In this document: positions 14,436-59,737 of the stretch, piece by piece
Position numbering within the stretch: the first letter of the stretch is position 1
How the letters are laid out: each line of letters opens with the position of its first letter
The notes under the pieces: generated by a model
What the model was told of the DNA's origin: nothing
What the model saw: only the letters and a program-made list of their open reading frames with translations
The model's database searches: none
IMG/VR virus record: IMGVR_UViG_3300018411_000028
Location: 1-59,737 of that record
Origin: a virus
Reading direction: 5' to 3' (one strand)
DNA length: 59,737 bases
Translations under genes and position numbers: made by a program

Positions 14436-14600
14436 TACCTTACCTCTCCTTCTCTTTTTTCGTTTACTGTTTTTTTAATAAAGTTTTATATACCAAAACT
14501 TTTTATAGTTTGCACACCATAACCTATTATAGGAAGTGATAAACTGACTAAAACTAGGAAATGGCACCAGAAAAGCGGTACTTATGCACCTGGCTATAAA

Positions 14601-14801
14601 ATGCTATTAGCAGGCGTTAAGCCTGGTAAATGTATTCTAGCAGGTGTTGACCCTTCAGATATGAGAAAAATACTTAGATTTCGTGCTGTGCAGGGGCAGA
14701 ACCTTACTTTATCAGAATTTGCAGCTAAAACTGGTCTGTCACGGCACACATGCAATAATCTGAAAAAGATTTACATTGCTCATAAGGGGAGAAAAGTATG
14801 A
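14601..14801 (+). CDS. Small HTH-like protein preceding the second adhesin gene
   Basis: LTLSEFAAKTGLSRHTCNNL is helix-turn-helix-like. ATGA overlap with 14798. The frame is open upstream to 14523 with AGTGATAAA-CTG at 14544, so a longer form is possible. Confidence 0.5.
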   Translation: MLLAGVKPGKCILAGVDPSDMRKILRFRAVQGQNLTLSEFAAKTGLSRHTCNNLKKIYIAHKGRKV

Positions 14802-17335: not shown

Positions 17336-17715
17336 TGTGGGCTAAAGAAATAGCCTTCTTTCTCCTTGCTTTTGTAGTAGCAGGAGGGATAATAAACGGA
17401 GCTGGAATATTTGATACTGTAACTATTCCAGAGGCAACAATGCCAGGGGCAGATTTAGCAGATGGAATAGTAGAGGCAGGGTCTTCAGGGTCAGAATCAG
17501 ACATAGCAAGTGCATTTGACGGGTGGGCAATGATAGCTAGTATGTACTCCACAGTAAAAACTGTATTTTCTGTGCTGATACTGCCAGGTCCTTACTTATT
17601 CAGTATTGGAATACCTGCAGCTTTCGCATATGGGATTCAAACCATGGTAACTTTAGCAGAAGTTTGGGGATTAATGCAACTAATAACGAATCGTAGCACA
17701 GGGGGAATGGATTAA
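17335..17715 (+). CDS. Multi-pass membrane protein (126 aa)
   Basis: TAATG overlap with the upstream gene. Several hydrophobic helices. Confidence 0.7.
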   Translation: MWAKEIAFFLLAFVVAGGIINGAGIFDTVTIPEATMPGADLADGIVEAGSSGSESDIASAFDGWAMIASMYSTVKTVFSVLILPGPYLFSIGIPAAFAYGIQTMVTLAEVWGLMQLITNRSTGGMD

Positions 17716-18365
17716 TGAGAGCTAGATTTATACTTATCTTACTCTCAATTTTTATGCTGTGTGGGGTGACTGCAGCAACTCCTGTAATTTCCTTTGTAGG
17801 AGATAGTAACCAAGTTATCACTGTTGGGGCTACTCATGCGTTTAATTTCACTTCAGACGTAGCTATAAACTCAGCAGATTATTATTTAGATGGTGTCAAA
17901 ACAACAGTAGCAGGACAAAGCAAAGAGTACACGTTCACGGATGATAGCACTTATCATAATGTTTCTGTGATTGCCTCAGATGGTAATCCTTCAAACATGC
18001 TTACGTGGACTGTAACAATTCCAAGAGAAAAAGCAACTGTTTCAATTGCAACAATAGGAGATGATGAAGAGTATAACAGTCTAATGGATAACTTTACTGA
18101 TATGAATTGGGAAGGATTAACACAGTCTGCAACAACACCTTTTACTAATGCAATGGGTAGAATGTTTTATGTAGTGCTGTTTATCTTGCCATTTGTCTTA
18201 ATGTGGAAACAACAGGAAACAATGACAATACCTGCAATAGTCGCAATGTTCTTTGGTACTTTGTTAATAGGGTTTGTACCTGAACAGTATAAAACGTTGA
18301 TTACATTTGCGGTTATTCTATCATTTGCAGCGAATTTCTATCTGATGAGTAGGAATAGGCTTTAA
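17715..18365 (+). CDS. Secreted/membrane-anchored protein with beta-rich ectodomain (216 aa)
   Basis: TAATG overlap. Signal peptide ILILLSIFMLCGVTAA, N-x-S/T sites, two C-terminal TM helices. Confidence 0.7.
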   Translation: MRARFILILLSIFMLCGVTAATPVISFVGDSNQVITVGATHAFNFTSDVAINSADYYLDGVKTTVAGQSKEYTFTDDSTYHNVSVIASDGNPSNMLTWTVTIPREKATVSIATIGDDEEYNSLMDNFTDMNWEGLTQSATTPFTNAMGRMFYVVLFILPFVLMWKQQETMTIPAIVAMFFGTLLIGFVPEQYKTLITFAVILSFAANFYLMSRNRL

Positions 18366-18383
18366 AGGGTTTAAAACCCTTTT
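18365..18383 (+). terminator. Hairpin plus T-run
   Basis: aaggg-tttaaaa-ccctt followed by tt, at the stop codon of 17715..18365. Confidence 0.4.
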
Positions 18384-18401
18384 AATTTTATTGATAGGAG
18401 A

Positions 18402-18429
18402 TTTTAAATAGTTTGACAACAGTATATTC
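18402..18429 (+). promoter_or_regulatory. Promoter-like element related to the TTTAAATAG...TATATA family
   Basis: ttttaaatagtttgacaacagtatattc has the same TTTAAATAGTTTGA upstream half as copy 2 but a diverged downstream half. It precedes the 18474 operon. Confidence 0.35.
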
Positions 18430-18473
18430 TATAAGTAAATATTAAATAAATATAAATAAAGAGGTTATATAAT

Positions 18474-18629
18474 ATGACACAAGCTAAGAAATACGTTGTT
18501 AAAGTTGTGACAATGTCTACAAGTGTACCACTGGGTAAGGCTGCAGCTGTAAAAGCCAAACGTGCTATAGATGCCGAAATCAGGAAAAAACATGTTAAGA
18601 ATGTTAGAGTTTCGGTAATTCAGGCTTGA
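18474..18629 (+). CDS. Small basic protein (51 aa)
   Basis: MTQAKKYVVKVVTMSTSVPLGKAAAVKAKRAIDAEIRKKHVK... with AAGAGG upstream. The 68-aa minus-strand track ORF here is treated as its shadow. Confidence 0.5.
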   Translation: MTQAKKYVVKVVTMSTSVPLGKAAAVKAKRAIDAEIRKKHVKNVRVSVIQA

Positions 18630-18636
18630 GGTGGTA

Positions 18637-18810
18637 ATGATGGAAAGTATCGAAAACACTGAAAATGTCATAAGCAGAAGAAGTAATATGGTTGGTGGAA
18701 TTATCTCACTCTCTGTATTTACCCTTGTACTCTTAACTATGGAGAGTTTTGTGTTTGCAGCTATTGCTTCTATAGGCTGTTATCAAGGATATAAACAAGT
18801 TAAAAAATAA
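18637..18810 (+). CDS. Small membrane protein (57 aa)
   Basis: GAGGTGGTAATG start context. Hydrophobic core GGIISLSVFTLVLLTMESFVFAAIASIG. Confidence 0.5.
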   Translation: MMESIENTENVISRRSNMVGGIISLSVFTLVLLTMESFVFAAIASIGCYQGYKQVKK

Positions 18811-18828
18811 TAGCTCTGAGGTGTGCAT

Positions 18829-21621: not shown

Positions 21622-21639
21622 TTTATAGGGGGTTGAGGT

Positions 21640-22251
21640 GTGAAAGATTTGTTTAGTGATGAAAGGGCAGACAGCATGACGATGTTTGTAATAGCTGCAA
21701 CTGTCCTTGTCTTTGGTCTTGCCTACACAATATTAACATGGACATTTGATGTACCAATACAGGCAATAAATGATTTGATTGCTTCAGGGTCCTTAACAGT
21801 AGATACCACAGAGCATTTTAATACAATGTTAAACCTCTGGCAAGCAAGTCCTTTCTTTGTGCTTGTAGGGCTTGTATTGTGGTGCTTTGAGAGGTCAAAG
21901 GGCACGGACCTTTCTTCAGGAAAATACTTTGAATACTTAATGCTCATGGTAGTATCACTTATCATATCCGCTTATATGGTGTTTGCATACGGACTTTGTC
22001 TCGATGGCATAACCTCAGAGCTTGATGGTGTAAGCTTCTTTACAAGCGTTTCAGAAGTATGGGACACTTCAGACGCAAGAGGTTTGTGCGTTTCAGCTAT
22101 ATATTGGCTTTGTATGCTGCCAGGTTACTTAGGTGTTATACTGTTTACTCTTCACCCAATATTGAAACAGCTTGAAGGTAAAACAGACTTCTTCGGAGGA
22201 AGTGAAGAATCTGATGAGACAGTGACAGACTATCAAATTCAACAATTTTAA
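21640..22251 (+). CDS. Multi-pass membrane protein (203 aa)
   Basis: GTG start after GGGGTTGAGG. Four or more hydrophobic helices and an acidic tail. An ATG at about 21676 is an alternative start. Confidence 0.65.
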   Translation: MKDLFSDERADSMTMFVIAATVLVFGLAYTILTWTFDVPIQAINDLIASGSLTVDTTEHFNTMLNLWQASPFFVLVGLVLWCFERSKGTDLSSGKYFEYLMLMVVSLIISAYMVFAYGLCLDGITSELDGVSFFTSVSEVWDTSDARGLCVSAIYWLCMLPGYLGVILFTLHPILKQLEGKTDFFGGSEESDETVTDYQIQQF

Positions 22252-25244: not shown

Positions 25245-26693
25245 TTAAATTCCTGCTGCCCTTGCGTGCCTGTTGTAGCACTCTTTTGCATTTCTGTCTC
25301 TAAAAGGTATTTTACCAGACATAAATAGCTTACATTGGCTATTCCAATCTTCTCTTGCTTCGTCTACTACTCTTGCTTTTTTGTTTTTCTCATCTATGTT
25401 TCTGAGCTTCAGCTTATGCTGTCTAATATCCTCCTGTATTTTTTCAACCTCTGCTCTTAGTTTTTTAACATGCTCCATGGTTCCAGATACATTAGCTTCC
25501 ATACCGCTAGTATCAGGTGCTTTTCTCTGTCTCATATCTGCAAGGTGCTTTGTGAAGTCATAGTGAACCTTGAGATACTTTTCAATATCATTGCTTAACT
25601 TGTTGTGTTTCTCCTCAAGTTCCTTTATTTTGTTTATTTCAACCTCTTCAGGAGGAAGTTTAACTTTTTTAGCTCTTACTTTCTTTGCTGGTACCTTAGC
25701 AGCTTTCCTTGAAGCTATAATAGCTTTCTGCTCTTGGGTGAGTCTTAAAGACTGTATTGCAGAAGGTCTGTATTTAAAATTATCGCCCATTTTTAGGTTT
25801 TTCTTAGCTGTCCTGCCTTTAGGTTTTTCAGGCTTTGGCAATACTGACGCGCGTCTTATCTTGAATTTTAGTGTATCATAAGGTGATCCGTTTGTTTTTA
25901 TCTCCTTCTTTTCCATGATCTTCTTTGCCTTTGCTATGTATGGTTCAACGTCCTTTCTTGTTGCAATTGCACCTTTAAGGATCTGCCTTTCTACCTGATC
26001 TTTCATACCGTCAGTAAAGTACCTTACAGCATTTGAGTATTTTATCAAAGCCTGCATTTTTCTGCCTTCTGCAAGGTCCACAAGCTCATAAGATTTAATC
26101 TTTTCAGGACTAATCTTTGTTTCTGTGGAAATCACAGTATGAGGCATACGGTTATATCTGAAGTCTTTATCAGATGCTCTTGTGTCTTCATATTTGAAAG
26201 GTACACCAGGGTTAAACCAACTTCCTAGAGGTCTACTAAAGGAAGCATACCTTCTTCTTGTAGATGGTGTAGCTTTCTTAGGCATACTCTTCACAGCAGC
26301 CTTATGCACCATCTTAGCAGGCGTTTTCTTAGTCCGGCTGGATAGTTTTGCAGGTGACTTAATGCTGGAGAGGGAGAACTTAGGCTTACCTGCCTTAACT
26401 TCTTTCTTCTCCACACCCTTCTTAGTATCAACACCAGGATAGTCCAGCTTATGAGGTTGTGCTCTCCACTGAGCTTTAGATACTGCAAGCTTTCCGGTTC
26501 TCTTACTATCATTTGCAAGAGAGTATTTCACCCATACGCCTTTACCAGTATGGAAATATTTGCCATTATCTGCAACACTTCCATATTTTGTGGTAATAGC
26601 TTTAACAGCTTGCGTGGCTGTTTGTGACCTTGTTATTTTAGCTTTTTTCGTTGCTAGGGCTTTGATTTGTCGCCCTGAATATAGACCTTTCAT
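25245..26693 (-). CDS. Large Lys/Arg-rich basic protein (482 aa), function unknown
   Basis: ATG 26693 is preferred because GAGGTG lies within the track's extra 5 codons. Sequence is rich in KK/KAK/KKV runs, with a coiled-coil-like C-terminus. It is the lone minus-strand gene inside the plus-strand arm. Confidence 0.75.
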   Translation of the reverse strand: MKGLYSGRQIKALATKKAKITRSQTATQAVKAITTKYGSVADNGKYFHTGKGVWVKYSLANDSKRTGKLAVSKAQWRAQPHKLDYPGVDTKKGVEKKEVKAGKPKFSLSSIKSPAKLSSRTKKTPAKMVHKAAVKSMPKKATPSTRRRYASFSRPLGSWFNPGVPFKYEDTRASDKDFRYNRMPHTVISTETKISPEKIKSYELVDLAEGRKMQALIKYSNAVRYFTDGMKDQVERQILKGAIATRKDVEPYIAKAKKIMEKKEIKTNGSPYDTLKFKIRRASVLPKPEKPKGRTAKKNLKMGDNFKYRPSAIQSLRLTQEQKAIIASRKAAKVPAKKVRAKKVKLPPEEVEINKIKELEEKHNKLSNDIEKYLKVHYDFTKHLADMRQRKAPDTSGMEANVSGTMEHVKKLRAEVEKIQEDIRQHKLKLRNIDEKNKKARVVDEAREDWNSQCKLFMSGKIPFRDRNAKECYNRHARAAGI

Positions 26694-26808
26694 TTGTGTA
26701 CACCTCATAATTATATAGGCTGTTAAGATATTTAAGTTTATGGTTTATAAATGTTTCTATTAAGTATATCTGATAAGCTATAAATATAATAATAGTATAT
26801 CCATTGTG

Positions 26809-41961: not shown

Positions 41962-42216
41962 TTAAGGGTTTATCACCTCAAGCACTCTACTTTCAAGCAG
42001 TTCACTACCTTTGAATATCTCTTCTATAGTAAAAAACCTATCTTCCACCTGGAGCACAGGAGCATTATTTGTGAACACTTGATTAAACCTAAGCTCTGCG
42101 AGATTCTCAGCTTCCTGCATGTCGAGAGATTCAAATGCGATACCGTTAGAAGTGAGAAAGGCTTTAAGCCTCTTACACTTCGGGCATACTTTTGTTGAAT
42201 ATACGTTTACTATCAT
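41962..42216 (-). CDS. Glutaredoxin/NrdH-like redoxin
   Basis: VNVYSTKVCPKCKRLKAFL: CxxC in a thioredoxin-fold context, 84 aa. Confidence 0.8.
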   Translation of the reverse strand: MIVNVYSTKVCPKCKRLKAFLTSNGIAFESLDMQEAENLAELRFNQVFTNNAPVLQVEDRFFTIEEIFKGSELLESRVLEVINP

Positions 42217-43263: not shown

Positions 43264-44874
43264 TTACTCTACTACTGCCTCAATAAACCAACTTCTGAAA
43301 TACTCTCTGTGTTTCCTATAAAACACTATCCATTCTGGTTCTGTAATTATCGTATTTGTGGTTTTCTTATCATTCCGGTTAACTCGCCCATACTGTTGCA
43401 TAACTTCATTTGCAGCTTCTACATACTCCCATTCTTTACCCTGATACTTCCACTTTGCTCTGGTCAGATGATCTGTGGGATTCTGTCTCTTAACATATGT
43501 AATTACATTATTTAGTATGTCATTCTCAGGTAAATCAATACCTCTCCCCATGTTAACAGCTATTAAGATCTGTGTTTTATTTCTTGCTCTTTTAAACCTA
43601 TCTATTGCGTCACCTCTTAGGACTGCGCCTTCAATACTTGCCATAGTGCTTTCTCTCGATTGCACTATGGGTTTTACCTTGCCGTGACTTACTCTGTATA
43701 TTTCAGACCCTAGCCTTTCTGCAATTGAGTAAGAGGGCACATGCACAATAGTCTTGCCTGGCAGAAGAATGTCTGAAGGTTCGCTTAACATTTTAGCCAG
43801 CTTTGGTATTGTCTCATCTCTGTTTTTCATGGTTAAGGACCCTACAGGAATAAACTTAAAGGGTCTTACTTCCTTTGGAAACGGGCTTTTAACCTCTATA
43901 AACTCCCACCCTTCAAGCTTTTGAGGGGTTGCACTCATAAGGACAACTATTCTATTTTCTGTGTCAAGTGCTTCGTCTAAGAACCTTTCAATTGAAACAG
44001 GTTCAAAAGGTGTTGTTTTACCGTTATCATCTGACACTATGTACTTATTTCCTTCTTTTATGTCGGTAAGCAACCTCTCTATTCTATCAATCTTATCGGT
44101 AAGTCCTCTTCTATGTTTGATATTTTCTAATGTTTTATCTAAGCTTTCAAGCTCATAAGTGTAAGCTTCTTTCTTATCCTGCAGGCACATTTCATAATCT
44201 GCAAAATCGTTAAAATGCCAGTAATCATCTATTATTAATTTCCTGAACATCCTAATAAATGGTTCCATGTAATCACACTCATCCACAATAACAACTTCAG
44301 GAGAGTTTGTTACACCCATTTGCAATAAGGTAAAATTACTGTTACCTATCATATGTCTTTTGTAAGCCCCAAACGCTTGTTTATAACTGCAATACTTACA
44401 TGGGCAAGCATCTGCGTCAGGTCTACTGCAATTATCACATTCGCGTTCATCAAACATTTTTAATTTATTCTTTGAGTCCATTGCCTCTTTATAACTCATT
44501 GTGCAAATGCCTGCAGCACAGAAACCATTGTCACAGGAAACCTTTTCCCTTTTTACTGCTCTCATTGCAGCACATTCATAATGTTTCTTGCCAGTGAGGG
44601 ATAAAAGAGGAAATTTACTGTCTGCCTCAAACTCTTTGTACTGGTCCACAAGAGTATTGAGAGGTGATGTGATAAGAGTAGGCAACCCCTTAAACGCTGC
44701 CAGGTTAGCCATGGCTTTTGCAATACCAGACTTTCCGGCACCAGTGGGAGCACAAATAATAAATTTACGTTTTCCCTCAAACAGTTTTTGCTCAAACCAC
44801 TCTAAAACCTCAATCTGTTGAGGTCTTGGAGTGTTTATTTTTGCTGTCTGTGGGAAGTAGTTTAAAATTGTCAT
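43264..44874 (-). CDS. XPD/Rad3/DinG-like SF2 helicase with Fe-S cluster-type cysteines
   Basis: Walker A CAPTGAGKSG, Walker B VIVDECD, motif VI QQYGRVNR. A Cys cluster lies between Walker A and B (CDNGFCAAGIC ... CDNC...CPCKYC). Confidence 0.85.
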   Translation of the reverse strand: MTILNYFPQTAKINTPRPQQIEVLEWFEQKLFEGKRKFIICAPTGAGKSGIAKAMANLAAFKGLPTLITSPLNTLVDQYKEFEADSKFPLLSLTGKKHYECAAMRAVKREKVSCDNGFCAAGICTMSYKEAMDSKNKLKMFDERECDNCSRPDADACPCKYCSYKQAFGAYKRHMIGNSNFTLLQMGVTNSPEVVIVDECDYMEPFIRMFRKLIIDDYWHFNDFADYEMCLQDKKEAYTYELESLDKTLENIKHRRGLTDKIDRIERLLTDIKEGNKYIVSDDNGKTTPFEPVSIERFLDEALDTENRIVVLMSATPQKLEGWEFIEVKSPFPKEVRPFKFIPVGSLTMKNRDETIPKLAKMLSEPSDILLPGKTIVHVPSYSIAERLGSEIYRVSHGKVKPIVQSRESTMASIEGAVLRGDAIDRFKRARNKTQILIAVNMGRGIDLPENDILNNVITYVKRQNPTDHLTRAKWKYQGKEWEYVEAANEVMQQYGRVNRNDKKTTNTIITEPEWIVFYRKHREYFRSWFIEAVVE

Positions 44875-45160: not shown

Positions 45161-46078
45161 CTAACACACAACTGTTTGAATAAGTAATGTCACAAAATAC
45201 CCTAGTATAGTACAAGAGCACAGTGCAGGCAGAGCCGGAAGTCCACCTTCGTGTTTTGTCATCCAATATACTAAAGCAACTACACCAAGCATTGTTCCAG
45301 TTATTGTCCCAACTGCAAGATATAAGCCACCTGACACATATGCCCCAACCACTAGCAATGTTGGAAATATTGCATCCCCAAAACCCATAAATCCACATCC
45401 ATTATGATCTTCACTCGTTGGATTATCAAATACATAGGAGTATTTCAAACTATGTGGAATAATAAACATTAACGGTAATTTTAAATCAAGAGCACACTCA
45501 GCCAGTTTCAGCATATGCTTAGACAAGAATACAGCAACCAAGTCATATATTGCAAATGCAAGCATTAAAACTATTATAACATTTATTGAAAGAATCCCTC
45601 CTATAATCGCCACTACAGATGCACAGATGCCAATCCCAACAATATTGACAATATACCACTCTGGATATACCCACAGACATACCATTAATACGCCACAAAA
45701 TGCTATTATATAATCTGCTATAACTGGATCGGATAAATTAAACATCAGCAGTATAGATTCAGTTATTAATACAGTGTTACTGAAAATTGATAAAAATATA
45801 AACCCTTTTACTATTACCCATAGTTTCAGTTTAATTATCAATAATATTATAAATGTCTCTACAATTACAATAATCAACATGTGTGCAACATTACCCATAC
45901 TGTTAGAGTCAACTGGACTGGTATCTACTATAAATTCTACTAATGAATTGGATTCATCACCTGGTCCAAATGTAGATAATACACCAATTGAAAGAAACTG
46001 AACAGATAAAATTATAAGCGCAGTAGGTAAACAGTTTTTTATAAAACTAACATAGTTGTATTTTTCTAATTCTGTCAT
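45161..46078 (-). CDS. Presenilin / signal-peptide-peptidase-like (GxGD, family A22) intramembrane aspartyl protease
   Basis: GGTGGTATAA-ATG start. Polytopic membrane protein with all three signature motifs in order: LAFAIYDLVAVFLSKHMLKLAE (YD), GFMGFGDAIFPTLLV (GxGD), GGLPALPAL (PAL). Confidence 0.8.
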   Translation of the reverse strand: MTELEKYNYVSFIKNCLPTALIILSVQFLSIGVLSTFGPGDESNSLVEFIVDTSPVDSNSMGNVAHMLIIVIVETFIILLIIKLKLWVIVKGFIFLSIFSNTVLITESILLMFNLSDPVIADYIIAFCGVLMVCLWVYPEWYIVNIVGIGICASVVAIIGGILSINVIIVLMLAFAIYDLVAVFLSKHMLKLAECALDLKLPLMFIIPHSLKYSYVFDNPTSEDHNGCGFMGFGDAIFPTLLVVGAYVSGGLYLAVGTITGTMLGVVALVYWMTKHEGGLPALPALCSCTILGYFVTLLIQTVVC

Positions 46079-46096: not shown

Positions 46097-46342
46097 TTAA
46101 TAATCACAAGAAACAAAATCAAAGTCTTCTTCTTCATCTGCAACTTTCAGCACACAGGGCTCTGGAAGTTCTCTGTACTGCTGGACCAGCCAGGCTACGG
46201 GAATTAATGTCACCAGTGCAAGAATTACAGGTAGGTTGCACAGGTATAATACTGTTTCAACTACAATACCTGCAATCGTAATGCCTATGATTACATTAGG
46301 AATATTTTCTCTATTCAGTTTCCCTTTTACTGTAAAATTCAT
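46097..46342 (-). CDS. Membrane protein (81 aa)
   Basis: GGTGAT RBS. Two hydrophobic helices and an acidic tail. Confidence 0.6.
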   Translation of the reverse strand: MNFTVKGKLNRENIPNVIIGITIAGIVVETVLYLCNLPVILALVTLIPVAWLVQQYRELPEPCVLKVADEEEDFDFVSCDY

Positions 46343-46620
46343 TTCAAATCACCACTTTTAAAATTCTGTTCTAACCTATAAAGTTTAGACTTTTTCCACT
46401 CAGCTATGTTATCTTTTCCCATTACTAACTTCATACGATCAAGCATTATCTCAACGTCTGCCATTTCTTCACAAATATGCTCATAAGTGGTAGGTGTGGG
46501 GTCTACCTTCCATTTTAATGCAGCTTGCCCCAACTCACAGCACTCTTCAGCTAGTTTATCAGTTGAGGCTTTAATTCCAAGTTTTTCTAGTACTGCTAAA
46601 TGTAATTCTATCTCTTCCAT
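46339..46620 (-). CDS. MazG-like nucleoside triphosphate pyrophosphohydrolase
   Basis: LAEECCELGQAALKW and CEEMADVEIMLD match the EExxE...ExxD MazG pattern in a 93-aa all-helical protein. Confidence 0.7.
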   Translation of the reverse strand: MEEIELHLAVLEKLGIKASTDKLAEECCELGQAALKWKVDPTPTTYEHICEEMADVEIMLDRMKLVMGKDNIAEWKKSKLYRLEQNFKSGDLK

Positions 46621-46622
46621 CC

Positions 46623-46760
46623 TTACCCCTGCTTCCCATGCTCACAAGAATCATTATACAGCACCCTCTTATTGAAATTTGGGGATACTCTCAACCTACA
46701 AACAAAGACGACACCTTCAGAACATCGAAAAGCTTTAAAACACTTTGCACAGTTACACAT
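46623..46760 (-). CDS. Small Cys-rich protein (45 aa)
   Basis: GGTGGTATAAA-ATG start. MCNCAKCFKAFRCSEGVVFVC. Confidence 0.45.
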   Translation of the reverse strand: MCNCAKCFKAFRCSEGVVFVCRLRVSPNFNKRVLYNDSCEHGKQG

Positions 46761-46932
46761 TTTATACCACCTCATTTTAACTTAACTTACATCCTTACCT
46801 ATGATTCATAACTATATAAAGTTATTGCTTGAGAATCAAACATAATTAAAAATTTATTTTAGGCTGTCATTTGTAATGATAGGCTCTATATAAAGAACCA
46901 TTCATTACAAACGAAGGCTATTTAAGGAATAA

Positions 46933-47178
46933 TCATTTCTCTAATCCTATTTCATAATCCCAAACACAAGCACCATAACCCATTTTAAACACAAAAGGTA
47001 AAAGTTTTTGAAGATCTTTATTATCCTCTGCCAACTTTTTTATTTGCTCTAGCTTTTTCTCTGTATGTTCACTGAATTTCCCGCCTGTTATATACACCAT
47101 AAAACTATCTTCTAACAGCCCGTCTGTATCAGTAAATGGGTCATTCTTGCTTGGAAAGTGTTTATTTATAGACTCCAC
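46933..47178 (-). CDS. Hypothetical protein (81 aa)
   Basis: Track ORF in the operon, directly downstream of nrdD. Confidence 0.5.
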   Translation of the reverse strand: MESINKHFPSKNDPFTDTDGLLEDSFMVYITGGKFSEHTEKKLEQIKKLAEDNKDLQKLLPFVFKMGYGACVWDYEIGLEK

Positions 47179-47187
47179 TATATCACC

Positions 47188-49908
47188 TCAAATCTCCACT
47201 CTTTTTCTGTCCTTAAGCTCCTGTCTCTTTCCTGCGTTCCAGCCTTCTACAGCCTGCAGATACCCAGTAATCCTTGACAAATGCTGCACTTTATCAGACC
47301 CACATTTAGGACATTTATCATGCAACCCACTACTTACAGATCCTTCTGCTGTGCAAACTGTCATGTCCCGTGTGAAGGCGAAGTACCCAACCTGCGTATT
47401 TTTTGCCAACTGCATTGCAAACTCCATGAGCCCTGCAGGGTTTGAGCTGCCCTCACCTAGCCAGATATGAAGGATGTTCCCACCATCTACCACAGGGAAG
47501 AAGGTGTGTTCATAATTAATTCTCTCAGGCAGTGTTATGTTTGCGTTAACTGCTACGTGCGTACCGTTTGTGTAATAAATTGGCAGGTCCTTTGTCTTGC
47601 CGATCTGCTGTAAGGCTGCTTCAAGATCCCCTTTTATTACAGTTGCCGCTTTATCCCTGTACTCTTCGTGCAGTAGGTCACTAACTGCAAATCTCTGTGC
47701 TGTTGTCTCTGCAGGTGTACGCGCCAGGGCAATTGTTATACCGTTTTCTTTTGAGAGCTTCTGTGCATAGAGTTTCATCTCAAGCATTGCTCTGATTGCA
47801 AGTTTATAGGCTTCTTTACTTTCATGTATTTGTTTGCCTGTGTGGTACTGTACCATTTCGTTAATTCCTATTACTCCAATTGTGTACACAAGGCTATCAA
47901 AGTCCACTGCCATTGAACCTATTTCTCCAGTGTTAGGATCTCTAGGACGCTGTGAAGCGAAAGGTATTCTACCCTTTGCAATTAGGTTATTCATCCAAGA
48001 ACGCTTAACCTTGAAGATCTCAATGGCGTTATCCATGAGAGTTTTTAACCCTTTGAATAATTTCTCATCGTTGTGTTCTGCGTCATATGCTACTCTAGGA
48101 CAGTTTAAGGACATTACCATCCAGGACCCCATGGAGAAATGAGATCCGTTTCTGAAGTACATTTTATCCTCAAATTCCAAATCGGAGGTAGGATCTGCCG
48201 AGAATTGGTAAGCACAGCATTGATAGCAACTTATCCCGCCTTTTGAGCTTCTATACTCCGGCAACTGATTGTCAAAGTAGGGAGTTCCAAATTTGGCAGC
48301 TAGTTCAAATGCCTTAAGATACAGATCATGGTAACTTAGCATGTTAGGATTATTCCTATTAAACTCTTCGTCCTCCTGCATAAAGTCAGCTTCCATTGAT
48401 ATTTCAGGCTTCGGGAAGCTAAAGGGTTTACCTATTGCGTCACCTTCTATCATTACATCCATGAGAGCTTTAAAGCCTAGTCTTACTTCTCTTTCAAATT
48501 CTCCGTAGGTTCTGAGAGGTGCGTTAACACCATCAAATACTTTACCCATTGCGACTACTGGCTTGTCTTTCCAAAGGTTGTTTACTCCTGGCGTGAGCTG
48601 CACAGAGCTAAATACTGTATTGTGTGCTACAATACCGTTTGCAAGTACAAAGTTCTCGTTGTCCTGTACGCTTACATCATAAACATACTCAGGCATATTA
48701 ACTTCTGTTATGCGTGCAACACTGGACATTTCAATTTCGGACTGAATCTTAGACGAATCCCAGCGAACCATGAAATGTGCTGTAACGATTTTATCAGGGT
48801 GTGATGCTGGTGAAATTTCCACAATTGTGCTGTCATCTGTTAAGGTGAAAAGACTGTGGTCAGACGTAGTTACTACACTTCTACCATCAACTAGGGTGGT
48901 TTTTACAGTTTTTGACGCTGGAGCATGTCTGTGAACTGCTGTAAGTGGTTTCCACTCAACAGAGTGTGTTTTTTTGTTAAGAGAAAGTATTTCAGTCCCA
49001 TCAGACACTTTTTTACTCCCAGTATAAACAGTGTATTGACTACATAACTCCCCGATTTGTACCCTACTCACAACACCGCGTCTTCGAATTACAAGACACT
49101 CTTCATAAGCAAGGCTTTGACCGCCTCTTGCACACATCATCTGCATCATTTCATAGACAAACATCTGCATTAACTGTTTAATTTCTTTTTCTGTTTTTCC
49201 TTCAAAATAAGGGGCAAGAAACGTTAAAAAGTTGTACAGACCTTGTCCTCCAGCAAAATTTGTCTGCGCTGCACCAAGTAACTTGACTAAATGAAGTATT
49301 GCAACTTCAGCCTTTAATGAAGGCTTCGCTATACTCGACTGTGTCCCTACTCCGTCAGGCATAAGCCCATAGTAAAAACAGTATCGTGCGTCCCAATCTT
49401 GGCAAAACGGGCGAGTTCCAAAGTATTCTAAATCATGAATGTACTGTGTACCCGATAAGTGCAGATTAGCCAGCTTTTCAGGCATAAGCAAAAGGTTTTG
49501 CTCTTTGCTCATCTTATCAGCTTTTCTTTTGTGTGAAGTTTCCGCGTTATTCAACTGGTTTGCGTTATCGTTAGCTTCAAAACCATACCCTGAGTCAATC
49601 TCGTAAGCGTCATACACAGAGGCTCCTACCCTAGTCATAATGTTACGCCATTCTGCCTTACCTTCTTCAAGCAGTACAGAGTTTACTACCTCTCGAATAA
49701 GAGGACCTGAAACCTGCCTAATGTTAAGCTTAAGTATAAGATCCTCTGCTTTCTGTGCAACTGCCTGAGCTTCAGCTATAGTTGCCGCAGGCTTGTTATA
49801 GAAGTTTACGCTTAATTTAGTTTCCTTTACGATTTGCTTTACGATTACTTCTCTGTCCCATGGCATTATATAGCCGTCTGTATTTTTTACTGTAATATTA
49901 TTAATCAT
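47188..49908 (-). CDS. nrdD: Anaerobic (class III) ribonucleoside-triphosphate reductase, intein-containing
   Basis: N-terminal ATP-cone (ITVKNTDGYIMPWDREVIVKQIVKE). C-terminal Zn site CTAEG...CPKCGS and glycyl-radical motif SRITGYL. A Hint-type insertion interrupts ARGGQ / TVFSSVQL. Confidence 0.95.
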   Translation of the reverse strand: MINNITVKNTDGYIMPWDREVIVKQIVKETKLSVNFYNKPAATIAEAQAVAQKAEDLILKLNIRQVSGPLIREVVNSVLLEEGKAEWRNIMTRVGASVYDAYEIDSGYGFEANDNANQLNNAETSHKRKADKMSKEQNLLLMPEKLANLHLSGTQYIHDLEYFGTRPFCQDWDARYCFYYGLMPDGVGTQSSIAKPSLKAEVAILHLVKLLGAAQTNFAGGQGLYNFLTFLAPYFEGKTEKEIKQLMQMFVYEMMQMMCARGGQSLAYEECLVIRRRGVVSRVQIGELCSQYTVYTGSKKVSDGTEILSLNKKTHSVEWKPLTAVHRHAPASKTVKTTLVDGRSVVTTSDHSLFTLTDDSTIVEISPASHPDKIVTAHFMVRWDSSKIQSEIEMSSVARITEVNMPEYVYDVSVQDNENFVLANGIVAHNTVFSSVQLTPGVNNLWKDKPVVAMGKVFDGVNAPLRTYGEFEREVRLGFKALMDVMIEGDAIGKPFSFPKPEISMEADFMQEDEEFNRNNPNMLSYHDLYLKAFELAAKFGTPYFDNQLPEYRSSKGGISCYQCCAYQFSADPTSDLEFEDKMYFRNGSHFSMGSWMVMSLNCPRVAYDAEHNDEKLFKGLKTLMDNAIEIFKVKRSWMNNLIAKGRIPFASQRPRDPNTGEIGSMAVDFDSLVYTIGVIGINEMVQYHTGKQIHESKEAYKLAIRAMLEMKLYAQKLSKENGITIALARTPAETTAQRFAVSDLLHEEYRDKAATVIKGDLEAALQQIGKTKDLPIYYTNGTHVAVNANITLPERINYEHTFFPVVDGGNILHIWLGEGSSNPAGLMEFAMQLAKNTQVGYFAFTRDMTVCTAEGSVSSGLHDKCPKCGSDKVQHLSRITGYLQAVEGWNAGKRQELKDRKRVEI
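48619..49116 (-). mobile_element. Mini-intein (about 160-166 aa, no endonuclease domain) inside nrdD
   Basis: Starts SLAYEECLVIRRRG (compare the classic CLSYETEIL-type block A) or at Cys 6 residues later (49098). Ends VLANGIVAHN followed by Thr (+1). Removing it restores ARGGQ-TVFSS. Confidence 0.8.
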
Positions 49909-50045
49909 TATAACAGCCTCTGTTTATTTTTAATCTCATACTCAAGTTCATTTACTGTTACTTTAATATCGTCTATACTTATTCCACACTGAAGCATTAA
50001 TTTATAGATTACATTTTTAGCATAATTCTTTGTTGAAGCGTACAT
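49908..50045 (-). CDS. Small protein (45 aa)
   Basis: TAATG overlaps at both ends couple it to the TS-fold gene and nrdD. Confidence 0.45.
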   Translation of the reverse strand: MYASTKNYAKNVIYKLMLQCGISIDDIKVTVNELEYEIKNKQRLL

Positions 50046-50668
50046 TAAACCCTCTCCCACATATCGAATTTATCAGCATCACCCATTTTCAAATGAGCAT
50101 TAATAACATACCTGCAGTACTTCCCTATACCCCTTCCAAGTCTAAAAGCAAAATATCTTTGCAGTTGCCGGAATCCAAAGTCATCTGAAGGACTTGCCTG
50201 CCCACAGTCATTACTTCTAAAGATAGTAGTCATGCAGACTAAGCCATCTATAATTTCAATCTGCAGACCTACACAGCAGGGTACTTCTTTTGTGGACCCT
50301 ACGTGTTCAGGACGGAATAAAGGAATATATGCTCTCCTGGTGTTAGGGTTCTGTCGAAGTACTCTAATAGTTTTTTCTATGAGTCTATCCATCCACATTA
50401 ACCAACCATAACCATAATCGAAGCCAAGTCCTCTAAGCATGGCATGAGAAGAATAAACAAGACCTGCTGCAAAGTCATTATCCAATATTTCTGTTGTCTC
50501 TCCCATGGGTACATGGCTAAGGTCTGCCGAGTCACAAATGAAGTGTATATTATGGCAAAATATGCATGAATCGCCATTCTGATCTTTAGTAAGCTCTCCG
50601 TTCTGCCTAATGTATTTCACACCTGCAGAGTGAATACCCTTCAAAGTTTTTTCTACTATTTCAGTCAT
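50045..50668 (-). CDS. Thymidylate-synthase-fold pyrimidine C5 transferase with Asp at the base-specificity position (candidate dCMP methylase/hydroxymethylase)
   Basis: NPNTRRAYIPLF and PCCVGLQIEIIDGLVCMTTIFRSNDCGQASPSDDF align without gaps to the ThyA segments DPDSRRIIVSAW and [34 protein letters not shown]. The Cys nucleophile, RS and D are conserved. The Asn177 equivalent is Asp. Confidence 0.75.
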   Translation of the reverse strand: MTEIVEKTLKGIHSAGVKYIRQNGELTKDQNGDSCIFCHNIHFICDSADLSHVPMGETTEILDNDFAAGLVYSSHAMLRGLGFDYGYGWLMWMDRLIEKTIRVLRQNPNTRRAYIPLFRPEHVGSTKEVPCCVGLQIEIIDGLVCMTTIFRSNDCGQASPSDDFGFRQLQRYFAFRLGRGIGKYCRYVINAHLKMGDADKFDMWERV

Positions 50669-51266
50669 TTGAACACCTTGCAGTAATAATACTTACTATT
50701 TCGTCAGCAACTTCTTCAATAGATCTGTTAGCGTTTATCTCAACGTATTTAGGATTACCTTTATTTTCTTCAAGAAGTCTTTTGTACCCACGTACAATTT
50801 TCTCGTTATTATCGTACTTCTCACCATCTGTGGTAAATGGTGTACCTGTAAACACAAACACTAAGTCAGGCTGAACAAGCATTGAGTTCATCTCGTCAAT
50901 CCACTCTCTAGGAAGCCCGTCACTTTCGCCATAAATTGTGCCACTGTCAACATACCTATCAATAATTAAGTGACCCTGCATAGGTGTTAAAAGCCTGTCA
51001 ATTATATTAAGTGCCTGGAACCCTGCAGGCTCAAAGGGTCTTTTCCCTTGCAAAATCTCTCTTAATACTTTACCAGAGTAAAGATTAGGATTTGGAAATT
51101 TCATGTACTGAAAGTTTAACTGTTTGCACACAACTTCTGCAACTGTTGTTTTTCCTAAATTATCCGATCCCTCAAACACCACAAAGAAGTTTTCACTGCC
51201 CATATGCAAAAGTTTCTTCATCTGAAGTACCTCTTCAGTAACATAAGCCTCTTTTATAGTAAACAT
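50661..51266 (-). CDS. tmk: Thymidylate-kinase-family dNMP kinase
   Basis: P-loop FEGSDNLGKTT, DRY-type IIDRYVDSGTIYG. 8-nt overlap with the TS-fold gene. Confidence 0.85.
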   Translation of the reverse strand: MFTIKEAYVTEEVLQMKKLLHMGSENFFVVFEGSDNLGKTTVAEVVCKQLNFQYMKFPNPNLYSGKVLREILQGKRPFEPAGFQALNIIDRLLTPMQGHLIIDRYVDSGTIYGESDGLPREWIDEMNSMLVQPDLVFVFTGTPFTTDGEKYDNNEKIVRGYKRLLEENKGNPKYVEINANRSIEEVADEIVSIITARCSND

Positions 51267-51626
51267 TTAAACCGCCTCTGGGATGCCATTCTCAGCATAG
51301 TAAATTTTTAATCCTTTTTCTTCACCATAAGAACGTTCTAGTACAGCACCTTTTGACTGCTCCCACCCAGGCAACATAAATAGTGCGTCACCTTCTGCAG
51401 GACTCATTCTGTCAATAAATGCTAGATCTCCTGCCATCCAAACCTCCCAAGGTAAATCAGTGTGTTGAAAACCTTGTGTGTTTTTATGAGGACAAATAGC
51501 AGCCCACCCTTTTTCCCATGCCTCAAGAGCATATTTAGAGGCTGTTAAAACGTTCTGCTCTACCCCGTGTAGATTGTCGCTAGAGCTGTACTTACCTGAT
51601 ATGTATAATATTGGCATTCTTTTCAT
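51267..51626 (-). CDS. DUF4406 / nucleoside 2-deoxyribosyltransferase-like protein
   Basis: GGTGGTATAA-ATG start. ILYISGKYS...ICPH...GDLAFIDRM...DALFMLPGWEQSKGAVLE fits the DUF4406 pattern (iYiaGp...nP...D...cdai..l.gWe.S.Ga..E). Confidence 0.6.
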   Translation of the reverse strand: MKRMPILYISGKYSSSDNLHGVEQNVLTASKYALEAWEKGWAAICPHKNTQGFQHTDLPWEVWMAGDLAFIDRMSPAEGDALFMLPGWEQSKGAVLERSYGEEKGLKIYYAENGIPEAV

Positions 51627-51826
51627 TTATACCACCTCAACATAAATTTTACACAGCAGAAAGGACATTTGATAAACCCTGCTCCTATAGCTGTTTTCCT
51701 GAACTCACCACCACATGCCGGACAGGTTATAAGTTTGTAAATTTTATCACCTAGACTACTATACAGTGAAAGTATATAACATTTTTGGCTAAGTTTGTGA
51801 CTGTTTAAAAATTAGAGTTTAGAGGG

Positions 51827-52171
51827 TTAGCAGTAGTCTTTCTCAATAACTACTGTAAGCCCGTCTATGTCATTGAATAGCAGTTTTGAAGCTGTGTAAA
51901 TTTTATCAAACAACTGCTCTTCTACATTTCCTATAGTTAATGTACATGTTTCTGTGTCAAGCTTTCCCCAAAACGCTACTGAGAATGGAAAAATGTGTGT
52001 AATTCTTTTCCACCTTGAATTATACAGGACTTCAAAATCATACTCAATAGTCTTACTATATGCAGATTTATTAACTCTTATATTATTCAGCTTCCCATTG
52101 TTCTTTATCTGCCTGCAGATCCTTCTTAATTTACATTCTTCTGTTGCAAGTTCTTTAATTATTATTGTCAT
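51827..52171 (-). CDS. Hypothetical protein (114 aa)
   Basis: ATGA overlap with the methyltransferase gene. Confidence 0.6.
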   Translation of the reverse strand: MTIIIKELATEECKLRRICRQIKNNGKLNNIRVNKSAYSKTIEYDFEVLYNSRWKRITHIFPFSVAFWGKLDTETCTLTIGNVEEQLFDKIYTASKLLFNDIDGLTVVIEKDYC

Positions 52172-53844
52172 GCTAATAACCCCTTCCCCTTCCAGTATGC
52201 CCTTCTTACAGAATCAAACACTTCACAAGGTGCTTCTATAAGCATATCCTCGTAACTTTCTCTTTCTGTGTCTTCTAGTGTCCTCTCTAAGTCGTCAAGG
52301 CTTGCTTCTGTGTACTCAGGTACTTCTATTATATTTCTATAAGGACTTATGCTTACTCCTGCCCTGGCTTCTATTATTTCTTTGTACTCTTCTGTTAGTT
52401 CACAGCCTACAAACTTTCTGTTTAAGACTCTTGCAGCTTCTAATGTTGTGCCGCTTCCTGCAAATGGATCTAGTATTAAATCTCCTTCTCTACTGCCCAT
52501 TGTTATTAGGTAGGACATTAGTTTTAATGGTTTTACTGTTGGGTGTTTGTTTTCACAGTATTTGTTTTTCTCACTCTTTGCAGGCTTTGGAACTATTAGG
52601 TAAGGGTATGTTTTTTGTGCTTGTTCAGGTAGTTTAGATTTAAACCATGCATCAAGGTCAAAGTAGCGTGAGAATGAACCTGAATCGTTGCAGCTGGAAT
52701 AAACATCACCAATACCAGCCGTGGTTGTTGTATCTTTTTGAATTATACCCATCCCACTTTTGTTTTTTCTCACACCTGCAGTAGATTTTGTTATAGTCCC
52801 ATCATTCAAACAATCATCTGAAACTAACAAATTTGCAGGGAATCTGCCTTCTGGAACTGTGTAATCAGACTCATTGTACTTCCCGTAAAGTTCAGTATCT
52901 CTAAATGTATGTGTATGTGGATTTTTAGCGTGTATAACATCAGAATTATTAATAGGAATCCTACAATCACTCAACCATGTTACACCCTTACCATTATTCA
53001 AACACTGGTCAACATAGGTCTTTTCTGACAAAGGTTTCATTACTACTATTATTATTTCTACTGAAGGCTTCGGCTGAAATCCTGCGTATGCTCCGTTAAA
53101 TTCTTTTGCTTGTTCTGTAGCTGGTAAAGTTAAGTCTATTTCAGTTTTAGAGTATTCACCACCTTCTGACGAGTAACCCCCACCATTAACGTAGGCGTTT
53201 AATTTTTGTTTCTTGCCTATTACTTCTCGTTCAGCCTCATCTCTTTTATTAATAGCTCTCTCAATTAACTGAATAAAAACTTCATTATCAAATTTAAGAA
53301 CATCTTTTAAAACAATCCACTGTTCCATTGTTGGAATATTAGCTCCACTCTCCCAATTCCAAACACAACCAGTTAAACCTCCAGTCCTGCTTGGAAAATA
53401 CTTTGCTATATCTTTTTGGGATAAACCTAGTGCTTCTCTTGACTCTTTTAAATAACCACAAAGTTCTTTAGATAACTCTGAGTATTTCTCATTCTCTAGC
53501 CCTCTTTTATCAATAACTTTACTAATATCTTGAGCTTTCGGAAATCCAGTAGCATAACACCAGTAAATACTTGTAAACCCCGTATTAAACCCTGCATCCT
53601 CAAGCTTTATAATCATCCTACTTAATACATCCTGTCTCGGAGCACACATAAAAAACCCAAATGCACCAGGCTTTAAAACCCTGCAACACTCTTTAAGAGC
53701 TTCAATAGAAGGAAGTGCCCGATCCCAACTTTTATTCATAAACGAATAGCCATAAGGAGGATCTGTAATTATACAGTCAAAAGTCTCCGCAGGGTACTTT
53801 TTAAGTGTGTCTTTACAGTCTCCTAACAATACTTCATTTTCCAT
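52168..53844 (-). CDS. DNA methyltransferase (beta-class N6A/N4C) with an inserted HTH segment
   Basis: GGTGGTATAA-ATG start. Motif IV DCIITDPPYG is near the N-terminus and motif I LILDPFAGSGTT near the C-terminus. The insert contains LGLSQKDIAKYF. Confidence 0.9.
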   Translation of the reverse strand: MENEVLLGDCKDTLKKYPAETFDCIITDPPYGYSFMNKSWDRALPSIEALKECCRVLKPGAFGFFMCAPRQDVLSRMIIKLEDAGFNTGFTSIYWCYATGFPKAQDISKVIDKRGLENEKYSELSKELCGYLKESREALGLSQKDIAKYFPSRTGGLTGCVWNWESGANIPTMEQWIVLKDVLKFDNEVFIQLIERAINKRDEAEREVIGKKQKLNAYVNGGGYSSEGGEYSKTEIDLTLPATEQAKEFNGAYAGFQPKPSVEIIIVVMKPLSEKTYVDQCLNNGKGVTWLSDCRIPINNSDVIHAKNPHTHTFRDTELYGKYNESDYTVPEGRFPANLLVSDDCLNDGTITKSTAGVRKNKSGMGIIQKDTTTTAGIGDVYSSCNDSGSFSRYFDLDAWFKSKLPEQAQKTYPYLIVPKPAKSEKNKYCENKHPTVKPLKLMSYLITMGSREGDLILDPFAGSGTTLEAARVLNRKFVGCELTEEYKEIIEARAGVSISPYRNIIEVPEYTEASLDDLERTLEDTERESYEDMLIEAPCEVFDSVRRAYWKGKGLLA

Positions 53845-59614: not shown

Positions 59615-59737
59615 GTGGTATAAATGTTCAAATGCGATTATAGAAAAAAGTGTGAAGGATTCACTAGCGAGTCTATCTACTGTATGAGCTGGACTGAGTG
59701 CCAGGGGTGCGGAATTTGGAAGCTGTTCTCTAGGGGA
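59615..59737. repeat. Terminal direct repeat, right copy (identical to 1..123)
   Basis: Exact copy of bases 1-123. Confidence 0.95.

Follow-up and report, generated by a model that had tools for sequence, protein, structure and literature searches.

A thymidylate synthase homologue with a cytosine-type aspartate, a candidate dCMP-modifying enzyme of a probably archaeal virus

Modifying cytosine before replication with the help of thymidylate synthase (TS) homologues is a classic way for bacteriophages to counter restriction, and the pairing of a TS homologue that carries an Asn177-to-Asp change with a deoxynucleoside monophosphate (dNMP) kinase is already textbook in phages and used for metavirome mining. 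Is the same chemistry encoded by a virus that probably infects archaea? This question is raised by IMG/VR record IMGVR_UViG_3300018411_000028, of which the whole stretch of 59,737 nucleotides (the window) was analysed, and specifically by a TS-like open reading frame (ORF) at 50045..50668 on the minus strand. It encodes a short-form TS-fold protein of 207 aa, belonging to a group of relatives that we call the Asp clade, and is a predicted deoxycytidine monophosphate (dCMP) C5-(hydroxy)methylase. We consider it probable that the enzyme belongs to the short methanogen-type ThyA family, is specific for cytosine and acts in the pre-replicative C5 modification of dCMP.

The TS-like protein, its clade and its predicted substrate

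The protein belongs to the TS superfamily, scoring 32.3 bits against Pfam PF00303 (cutoff 24.3) and matching four PHROG thymidylate-synthase families (down to E 6.5e-15). In a phmmer search of PDB sequences, its best match was MilA, the mildiomycin CMP 5-hydroxymethylase (E 5.5e-13), with canonical TS enzymes at 1e-6 or weaker. An AlphaFold2 (AF2) model built with 14 homologues (predicted local distance difference test, pLDDT, 87) retrieved MilA, AfhB and canonical TS in Foldseek at a probability of 1.00 and a template modelling (TM) score normalised to the query (TMq) of 0.7-0.84. MilA gave a TMq of 0.81 and AfhB (9iqc/9iqu) a TMq of 0.80-0.84 with a target-normalised score (TMt) of 0.75-0.77, followed by many canonical TS. 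Among viral structure models, the protein matched phage TS homologues, including a gp42 dCMP hydroxymethylase.

The key residues of the protein are Cys131, Asp162, Glu128, Arg111/Arg112, Arg151-Ser152-Asn153-Asp154 and His192. By phmmer on PDB sequences, hmmalign and hhalign, Asp162 is equivalent to Asn177 of E. coli ThyA, to Asp179 of T4 and to Asp186 of MilA. The Asn177 mapping is independent of the E. coli ThyA and T4 dCMP hydroxymethylase (dCH) references used in hhalign and was confirmed on PDB sequences. Since four independent methods agree, the Asp at the Asn177 position is confirmed, and the TS-fold ORF with this Asp, which a preliminary description of the DNA had reported from its letters alone, is borne out by PF00303, phmmer on PDB sequences, hmmalign, hhalign and AF2/Foldseek. 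The ungapped alignment to ThyA given there, from the catalytic Cys onward and with its anchor residues, was likewise reproduced by phmmer on real PDB sequences, hmmalign and hhalign. The other equivalences with E. coli ThyA are Cys131 to Cys146, Arg151-Ser152 to Arg166-Ser167, Asp154 to Asp169 and Arg111 to Arg126, and the phmmer counterparts of Ser152 and Arg111 in MilA are Ala176 and Lys133. Asp162 is invariant in the 14 close homologues and in all 26 members of the wider Asp clade that were compared, and Pro130-Cys131, Arg111-Arg112, Arg151-Ser152, Tyr87 and His192 are invariant or nearly so among homologues; the Cys is assigned as the nucleophile, the Arg pairs as phosphate-binding, Tyr87 as catalytic and His192 as binding the 3'-OH. 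A mapping of the Glu58 equivalent was dropped, as hhalign gave conflicting results for the N-terminal half when E. coli ThyA and T4 dCH served as references.

We then examined the relatives of the protein. Searched with a profile, a set of 1.84 billion representative proteins yielded 6,406 of them, and among the best 150, which were those examined, the short proteins (200-230 aa) form two groups that are cleanly split by a neighbour-joining tree. The query falls in the Asp clade, which comprises about 35 representatives when clustered at 50%. After thinning of close relatives, position 162 is Asp in 26/26 sequences of this clade and Asn in 35/35 of the other, the Asn clade, and it is the sole position that is strongly conserved within both clades yet different between them; the Cys, Arg-Arg, Arg-Ser, both Tyr and the His are kept across both. 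Near the active site, the clades also differ at the equivalents of Tyr209 (Tyr, replaced by Arg/Lys/Ile in the Asp clade), His147 (Leu versus Cys/Ala/Val) and Trp133 (Trp versus Phe/Tyr), the His147 position being the second one flagged by MetaGPA (PMC8670742). The Asp clade is a concrete enzyme group for which the sister clade, told apart perfectly by one residue, is a natural control.

The two clades are found in different settings. The Asn clade holds copies from Altiarchaeota and Asgard (Wukongarchaeum, Hodarchaeota) genomes, located on large contigs, and 7 of the 10 Asn-type short proteins tested pass the equivalog cutoff of the methanogen-type TS model TIGR03283, with 186-213 bits. The context of Asp-clade genes, where known, is a viral or metagenomic contig, with none in the cellular genomes sampled; one distant member is labelled as coming from a Parabacteroides metagenome-assembled genome. 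Cellular homologues in the GTDB species genomes are all distant (<=30% identity) and Asn-type. The concern raised in the preliminary description, that genuine archaeal TS enzymes might share the Asp, has thus been answered, since all cellular archaeal copies examined carry Asn. No close homologue was found in any sequenced phage isolate, where the best full-length matches, 26% identical, are the TS homologues of the Pseudomonas phages Lucjan and ZC01; that of ZC01 carries the annotation deoxyuridylate hydroxymethyltransferase. The query itself aligns to positions 6-197 of the 201-position TIGR03283 model, scoring 72.8 bits against an equivalog cutoff of 174.55. It is colinear with methanogen-type ThyA over the full ~200 aa, with the same truncated C-terminus and the motifs Tyr-x-Tyr-Gly, Thr-Arg-Arg, Glu/Asp-x-Pro-Cys, Phe-Arg-Ser-Asn-Asp and Ala-His in common, whereas the viral clade has Asp for Asn, Lys/Arg/Ile at the Tyr209 equivalent and changes at the His147 and Trp133 equivalents. 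Judging by these alignments, the viral Asp clade evidently derives from the methanogen-type (short archaeal) ThyA family.

Published work ties the Asp to cytosine. An Asp at the Asn177 position leads to dCMP specificity and serves as a marker of metavirome contigs with modified cytosine (PMC5175136, PMC8670742, PMC13326640); studies of T4 D179 and of TS N177D/N229D, as cited in PMC5175136, support cytosine specification, and Asn-to-Asp mutants of TS are described as dCMP methylases (Liu and Santi 1992; Hardy and Nalivaika 1992, both as reported in PMC8670742). In MilA, Ala176 and Lys133 lead to a preference for ribonucleotides (PMC5175136), whereas the query carries the deoxyribose-type residues Ser152 and Arg111. 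Because the Asp is tied to cytosine and Ser152 and Arg111 predict a 2'-deoxy sugar, dCMP is a well-grounded prediction for the substrate.

The protein could instead be an ordinary short archaeal thymidylate synthase, converting deoxyuridine monophosphate (dUMP) to deoxythymidine monophosphate (dTMP) and tolerating the Asp with no change in specificity. Its full-length colinearity with TIGR03283 would agree with this, as would the setting in an operon for deoxynucleoside triphosphate (dNTP) supply, with NrdD and a Tmk, and the thymidylate synthase label that its relatives carry in databases. However, the score is far below the equivalog cutoff, there are no exceptions to the Asn or the Asp in either clade, the His147, Trp133 and Tyr209 equivalents co-vary with the Asp, and the Asn-to-Asp mutants of TS, according to PMC8670742, turn into dCMP methylases, so that we regard an ordinary TS as quite unlikely.

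A second candidate activity is that of a flavin- and O2-dependent dCMP 5-hydroxylase (5-hydroxy-dCMP synthase) like HY126 AfhB, RB69 gp48 and DLP3 gp80. These enzymes have in common with the query a short TS fold (217-234 aa for AfhB), the cytosine-type Asp and a TM score of about 0.8, and the AF2 model fits AfhB about as well as it fits MilA. They differ by the Asn at the Asp169 position, a diagnostic change (PMC13326640), by their use of O2 and flavin, and by linked arabinosyltransferases, none of which was seen in the query, where Asp154 is kept within Arg-Ser-Asn-Asp. Moreover, the sequence likeness to AfhB is weak (E 0.0017, compared to 5.5e-13 for MilA), O2 would be needed, yet the operon includes an O2-sensitive class III ribonucleotide reductase (RNR), and no arabinosyl- or glycosyltransferase is encoded. 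A hydroxylase is hence very improbable, and C5 modification of dCMP with a one-carbon unit is the reading that we retain.

The nucleotide-metabolism operon and its conservation

The TS-like gene lies in a packed operon on the minus strand, in the order DUF4406, Tmk-family kinase, TS-like gene, 45-aa ORF and NrdD. The DUF4406 protein, of the nucleoside 2-deoxyribosyltransferase (NDT)/N-glycosidase superfamily, is encoded at 51267..51626 (PF14359, 33 bits; phrog_355, E 1.6e-19), and the Tmk-family dNMP kinase, a candidate for acting on modified dCMP, at 50661..51266 (PF02223, 53 bits; TIGR00041, 55.5 bits, below the cutoff of 83). The 45-aa ORF (49908..50045), located between TS and NrdD, has a 93% identical homologue in the related contig L043, and NrdD, a class III anaerobic RNR with an ATP-cone and a mini-intein, spans 47188..49908 (PF13597, 489 bits). 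Read from the sequence, the ATG of Tmk directly follows the TAA stop codon of DUF4406, Tmk and TS overlap by 8 nt (ATGACTGA), and TAATG junctions with a 1-nt overlap each join TS to the 45-aa ORF and the 45-aa ORF to NrdD. The translational coupling of TS to its neighbours that had been described, including the 8-nt overlap with Tmk, is therefore confirmed.

Further genes follow on the same strand, namely a 93-aa MazG-like all-alpha NTP pyrophosphohydrolase that is a candidate dCTPase (46339..46620; phrog_2245, E 3.7e-17), an archaeal-type presenilin/signal peptide peptidase (SPP), a polytopic membrane protein of 305 aa (45161..46078; PF06550, E 7.8e-39), an XPD-like helicase further down the operon strand (43264..44874), and a glutaredoxin/NrdH-like redoxin with a CPKC motif (41962..42216; PF00462, 30.6 bits, cutoff 22.9). 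On the other side of the operon, and also on the minus strand, lies an N6/N4 DNA methyltransferase of 558 aa (52168..53844; PF01555, 108 bits). The identities given earlier to the Tmk, DUF4406, NrdD, MazG-like and glutaredoxin neighbours hold, the glutaredoxin gene being located outside the span over which the cluster had been drawn.

The kinase of the window is 34% identical (E 5e-27) to the Tmk coupled with a distant Asp-type TS in the relative L073, which is far closer to it than any solved Tmk; compared to solved Tmk structures, the O4-contacting Arg appears retained, in an alignment too weak for a reading of base specificity. The MazG-like ORF, recognised by PHROG only and with no match in Pfam or among PDB sequences, carries an EXXE...EXXD motif (E26/E29, E52/D55). 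NrdG, the activase of NrdD, was not found in the window. As for the DUF4406 protein, a PDB sequence search gave no matches, and a literature search on DUF4406 function, as well as on AfhB, returned nothing usable. Its AF2 model (pLDDT 87), in which Tyr8, Asp67 and Glu97 are invariant residues, resembles the NDT 8pqr, the structure 1t1j (TM 0.75), the CMP N-glycosidases MilB and BcmB, and DNPH1, all with weak E-values.

This likeness bears on whether the TS-like and DUF4406 proteins form a pair like MilA/MilB or BcmA/BcmB, in which hydroxymethylation is followed by the release of the modified base, or destruction of the nucleotide, by DUF4406, with a small-molecule or pool-sabotage role and not DNA modification. 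MilA is the best PDB match of the TS-like protein in sequence and structure and has in common with it the Asp base reader, an acidic residue three positions before the Cys (-3) and an adjacent NDT-superfamily protein (MilB), and DUF4406, kinase and TS are co-translated in the window and linked in the relative L072. Against such a pair, MilA is a ribonucleotide-preferring enzyme of 325 aa from an antibiotic cluster, while the query, which lies in a viral operon that concerns deoxynucleotide supply (NrdD, Tmk), has Ser152 and Arg111, of the deoxy type, where MilA has Ala and Lys. In addition, DUF4406 is missing from most Asp-type loci and the structural matches to MilB and BcmB have weak E-values (0.065-0.17). 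There is thus very little likelihood that the two proteins work in this way.

The conservation of the operon was followed in contigs with related TS genes. L041-L043 (IMG/VR), whose TS is 84-90% identical, carry TS, NrdD, a MazG-like gene (40% identical) and the helicase, and L004 (TS 72%) carries TS and NrdD. L072 (TS 73%) has DUF4406 (72%), Tmk (71%), TS and NrdD, a homologous block at 71-73% identity that has therefore been inherited vertically. In L062, L063 and L066 (TS 33%), the genomic position of TS is conserved, with flanking genes of 55-59% identity, and in L066 PCNA and an ERCC4/XPF-like gene adjoin TS. More distantly, L073 (TS 40%) has TS, a 29-aa ORF and a coupled Tmk, L079, L088 and L092 (profile scores of 214-311 bits) have a TS-Tmk pair, L074 (TS 30%) has TS, YopX, a dUTPase-family gene, NrdG, glutaredoxin (Grx) and NrdD, and L075 (TS 28%) is a tailed virus with terminase and portal genes. 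NrdD directly follows TS in the window as well as in L004, L041-L043 and L072, all of them near relatives, glutaredoxin is kept in L004, L041 and L072, and the Tmk-TS pairing recurs in L072, L073, L079, L088 and L092.

To compare the neighbours of the two clades, loci were dereplicated at 80% identity, which gives a small sample of clusters that are not phylogenetically independent. A Tmk-like neighbour was present in 4/13 Asp-type versus 0/20 Asn-type clusters (Fisher p = 0.018) and an N6/N4 methyltransferase-like neighbour in 5/13 versus 1/20; MazG was not enriched (1/13 versus 1/20). In summary, the robust partners of TS are the kinase and the anaerobic RNR module, and MazG and DUF4406 are optional.

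From these components, we propose the following pathway. Cys131 would attack C6 of dCMP and Asp162 would read the N3/N4 face of cytosine, with a methylene-tetrahydropterin (folate or tetrahydromethanopterin, H4MPT, depending on the host) presumably giving the one-carbon unit to C5, to form 5-hydroxymethyl-dCMP (slightly favoured) or 5-methyl-dCMP. The co-translated Tmk-family kinase would convert the modified dNMP to the diphosphate, a host nucleoside diphosphate kinase (NDK) would produce the triphosphate, and the viral family-A polymerase (PolA) would incorporate it. NrdD and glutaredoxin would provide deoxynucleotides under anoxia, and the MazG-like enzyme may lower the competing dCTP. Cytosine replacement would probably be partial, not total, and no further base tailoring appears to be encoded.

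Several other features of the region were noted. The segment 51267..53844 (DUF4406, Tmk, a 114-aa ORF and the methyltransferase) occupies the position of a weakly ERCC4/XPF-like gene in the closest relative, L041 (6414..7265), and this site is a hot spot at which cargo for DNA metabolism is exchanged; a homologue of the 114-aa ORF (51827..52171), with 58% identity, is present at another place in L066. In L062, a serine resolvase and an IS605 OrfB/TnpB element (Cas12f-like TNB domain) are inserted directly downstream of the Asp-type TS (9109..10933). The leader upstream of the operon (51627..51826, minus strand) contains a TATA-like TTATATA (about 51773..51779), for which a promoter role is presumed, and an open frame with four cysteines (Cys4). 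The latter is a zinc-ribbon-like mini frame (CPACGG...CPFCC; 51627..51760) whose end overlaps the DUF4406 start in an ATGA and which, in the window, lacks a canonical start codon. Just upstream of TS in L072 (about 9880..10000) there is a comparable Cys4 mini-ORF that starts with GTG and has CTTATATA before it, and it may be a conserved operon leader or regulator. The mini-intein of NrdD (PF14890, 64.6 bits) covers ~148 aa (aa 283-430, about nt 48619..49062), with no homing endonuclease recognisable in it. The intein varies among relatives: NrdD is intein-free (743 aa) in L004, L041 and L043 and has an intein in L072 (909 aa), and the NrdD ORF of L042, at 1504 aa, probably holds larger or additional inteins. 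Elsewhere in the window, an HD-domain metal-dependent phosphohydrolase (13881..14435, plus strand; phrog_28876, E 1.4e-23; PF01966, 22.8 bits) may be a further enzyme acting on the nucleotide pool, either a dNTPase or a nucleotidase.

Product and extent of the modification

The published signature of hydroxymethylases is an acidic residue three positions before the catalytic Cys together with the lack of a C-terminal tail (PMC6400193), and the -3 rule is in use for predicting products in metaviromes (PMC13326640; bioRxiv 10.1101/2024.12.05.627091). The query matches this signature, with Glu128 at -3 from Cys131 and 15 residues, no tail, beyond His192. T4 gp42, which works with the gp1 kinase and the gp56 dCTPase, has the same acidic -3 residue and no tail, and also has in common with the query the TS fold, the catalytic Cys and the Asp at the Asn177 position; at the genome level, both viruses have a dNMP kinase, an all-alpha NTP pyrophosphatase and their own DNA polymerase. 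However, the query is on another TS branch (the short methanogen-type scaffold, about 20% identity) and has Tyr85-Gly86-Tyr87 in place of the Ser94-x-Tyr96 of T4, a change of Ser/Thr to Tyr that, like the lack of a tail, is also seen in the Asn clade. Furthermore, the window has a kinase of the Tmk family and not of the gp1 family, no glucosyltransferase, accessory genes that are unconserved among relatives, and an anaerobic, probably archaeal setting. The prediction of the product from the -3 residue was dropped as uninformative, because true short TS enzymes carry Glu or Asp there and the rule is not transferable to the short scaffold.

Several observations weigh against the proposed replacement of viral cytosine by a modified dCMP. 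In the protein, the residue of the Arg21 region is Asn31 in the subclade of the query (Arg in most of the clade) and the Tyr209 equivalent is Lys194, and 5-hydroxymethyl-dCMP and 5-methyl-dCMP are inseparable by sequence because the -3 rule fails here: short enzymes that pass the TS equivalog cutoff carry Glu/Asp/Asn at -3 and are equally truncated. Among the relatives, the flanks of L041-L043 are without Tmk, DUF4406 and the methyltransferase, L004 is without these genes and MazG (MazG, Tmk and DUF4406 checked within 10 kb), and L072 has no MazG within 10 kb of TS. In the DNA, GGCC occurs 8 times in the window compared to 60.2 expected (z = -6.7), the observed/expected counts across the near relatives L004, L041, L043 and L072 are 0/18, 1/23, 0/16 and 1/14, and in two further viruses that carry an Asp-type TS it is GATC that is avoided (0/47.5 and 24/78). 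Finally, no glycosyltransferase, carbamoyltransferase, radical-SAM or other tailoring Pfam domain was found on any called gene of the genome. The hypermodification suggested in the preliminary description is therefore unsupported, as no tailoring enzyme was detected among the called genes; a GT4-like gene is present only in the relative L072, 9 kb from TS. Of the T-even-style gene set that it had proposed, the linked dNMP kinase stands, but the set is not stable, Tmk, DUF4406 and MazG each being missing in some close relatives. For the pyrophosphatase cast as remover of the canonical dNTP, the MazG-like ORF with its motif is a candidate, but MazG is not enriched near Asp-type enzymes and is absent near TS in L004 and L072.

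Two products remain to be weighed for a dCMP-modifying enzyme. 5-methyl-dCMP is favoured by parsimony, because the product of the sister clade is a methyl group and the Asn-to-Asp mutants of TS are dCMP methylases, whereas 5-hydroxymethyl-dCMP is favoured because of the extra active-site changes and the closer likeness to MilA and the long Asp-type enzymes; on balance, the hydroxymethyl product is slightly favoured. A methyl product would correspond to that of the Xp12-type dCMP methyltransferases, and is what one would expect if the methyl-transfer chemistry of the Asn-type sister clade is retained in the viral enzyme. Like the query, the Xp12-type enzymes are TS homologues with Asp177 that act before replication, and in metaviromes they are often linked with MazG/PRA-PH-like genes and PolA (bioRxiv 10.1101/2024.12.05.627091). 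Unlike the query, they are long-form enzymes, and the window has no cytidine deaminase partner. The Xp12-type pattern combines Asp177 with a hydrophobic residue at the position of E. coli Leu143, an expectation taken from the published rule and not from the Xp12 sequence; the query has the Asp (Asp162) but Glu128 at the Leu143 position.

The avoidance of GGCC implies that a restriction system of the host, specific for GGCC, has exerted pressure over a long time. Enzymes of the HaeIII/MthTI type are blocked by C5 methylation. Avoidance of their site is unexpected if all cytosines are C5-modified and therefore argues against complete replacement, and the separate N6/N4 methyltransferase points the same way. 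This suggests partial replacement, incomplete protection or a partial diversion of the product, for example by deamination to thymidylate. The 8 remaining GGCC sites are at 12752, 18990, 21515, 23429, 23484, 24705, 37918 and 37952, none of them in the nucleotide-metabolism operon.

Carried further, such a diversion would be a thymidylate bypass, in which dCMP is converted to 5-methyl-dCMP and mainly deaminated to dTMP/dTTP (deoxythymidine triphosphate) by a host deaminase or an unrecognised viral one, so that dTTP is boosted, the DNA is unmarked and the adjacent kinase is an ordinary dTMP kinase. Xp12-type phages deaminate part of their 5-methyl-dCTP to dTTP, which makes a second TS needless (bioRxiv 10.1101/2024.12.05.627091), and here the neighbouring kinase is of the Tmk family, no other ThyA or ThyX is encoded in the genome, and the GGCC avoidance suggests that the DNA is still exposed to C-sensitive restriction. 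However, a deaminase domain was not found in the genome, and since an Asn-type enzyme would give dTMP directly, the Asp throughout the clade (26/26) is hard to explain by a bypass. We therefore hold a bypass to be unlikely and retain C5-modified cytosine, probably in partial replacement, as the expected state of the virion DNA.

The virus and its host

The first and last 123 nt of the window are identical (1..123 and 59615..59737), so that the window represents a complete genome, circular (or terminally redundant), with a circle of 59,614 bp. Several samples contain independent assemblies, 59,665-59,755 bp long, in which a primase gene comes directly past the window end. The virus encodes its own family-A polymerase, PolA. 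The host is likely archaeal, because syntenic relatives carry PCNA and XPF. The earlier view of a probably archaeal virus is supported accordingly, by the PCNA and ERCC4/XPF genes beside TS in these relatives and by the presenilin/SPP of the window. The archaeal-family TS scaffold, the archaeal type of the presenilin/SPP and the TTATATA before the operon are indirect pointers in the same direction; as a caveat, PolA, the DnaG/D5-type primase-helicase and ParA are of phage/plasmid type. Since NrdD is encoded, the habitat is taken to be anoxic.

What is new here is the Asp-type sister clade of methanogen-type ThyA as a scaffold, along with the breakdown of the -3 product rule on it, and, probably, the host domain for cytosine modification by a TS homologue. 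In the literature searched, no paper ties such an enzyme, or a gene for pre-replicative cytosine modification, to archaeal viruses. The breakdown exposes a limit of the rule by which methyl and hydroxymethyl products are told apart in metavirome mining. It is conceivable, although we would not expect it on present evidence, that a lineage of anaerobic-archaeal viruses uses an Asp-type offshoot of ThyA, maybe with methylene-H4MPT, together with a co-evolving Tmk-like kinase, to replace much of its deoxycytidine by 5-hydroxymethyl- or 5-methylcytosine before replication. If true, this would be the first gene-level pathway for pre-replicative pyrimidine modification in archaeal viruses, and if methylene-H4MPT were used, nucleotide modification by the TS family would extend to a second one-carbon carrier. 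The DUF4406 N-glycosidase-like protein and unannotated ORFs might add undescribed steps. In practical terms the gain is modest, namely possible new enzymes with which modified cytosines could be made or read, as well as a marker for a lineage of archaeal viruses of which little is known.

Regarding the remainder of the genome, no terminase, portal or capsid gene was found in Pfam and PHROG scans of the large ORFs and in PDB searches with three of them. Large ORFs at 11064..22251 (plus strand) and 25245..26708 (minus strand), of 663, 845, 930 and 487 aa plus smaller ones, gave no Pfam, PHROG or PDB match, the sole exception being a CarboxypepD_reg domain in the 845-aa protein; presumably, these are virion or host-recognition proteins of undescribed architecture. 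The presenilin/SPP is unusual viral cargo and is absent at this position in L004 and L041-L043. A single tRNA gene, tRNA-Leu(TAA), is located downstream of PolA (9701..9782, plus strand).

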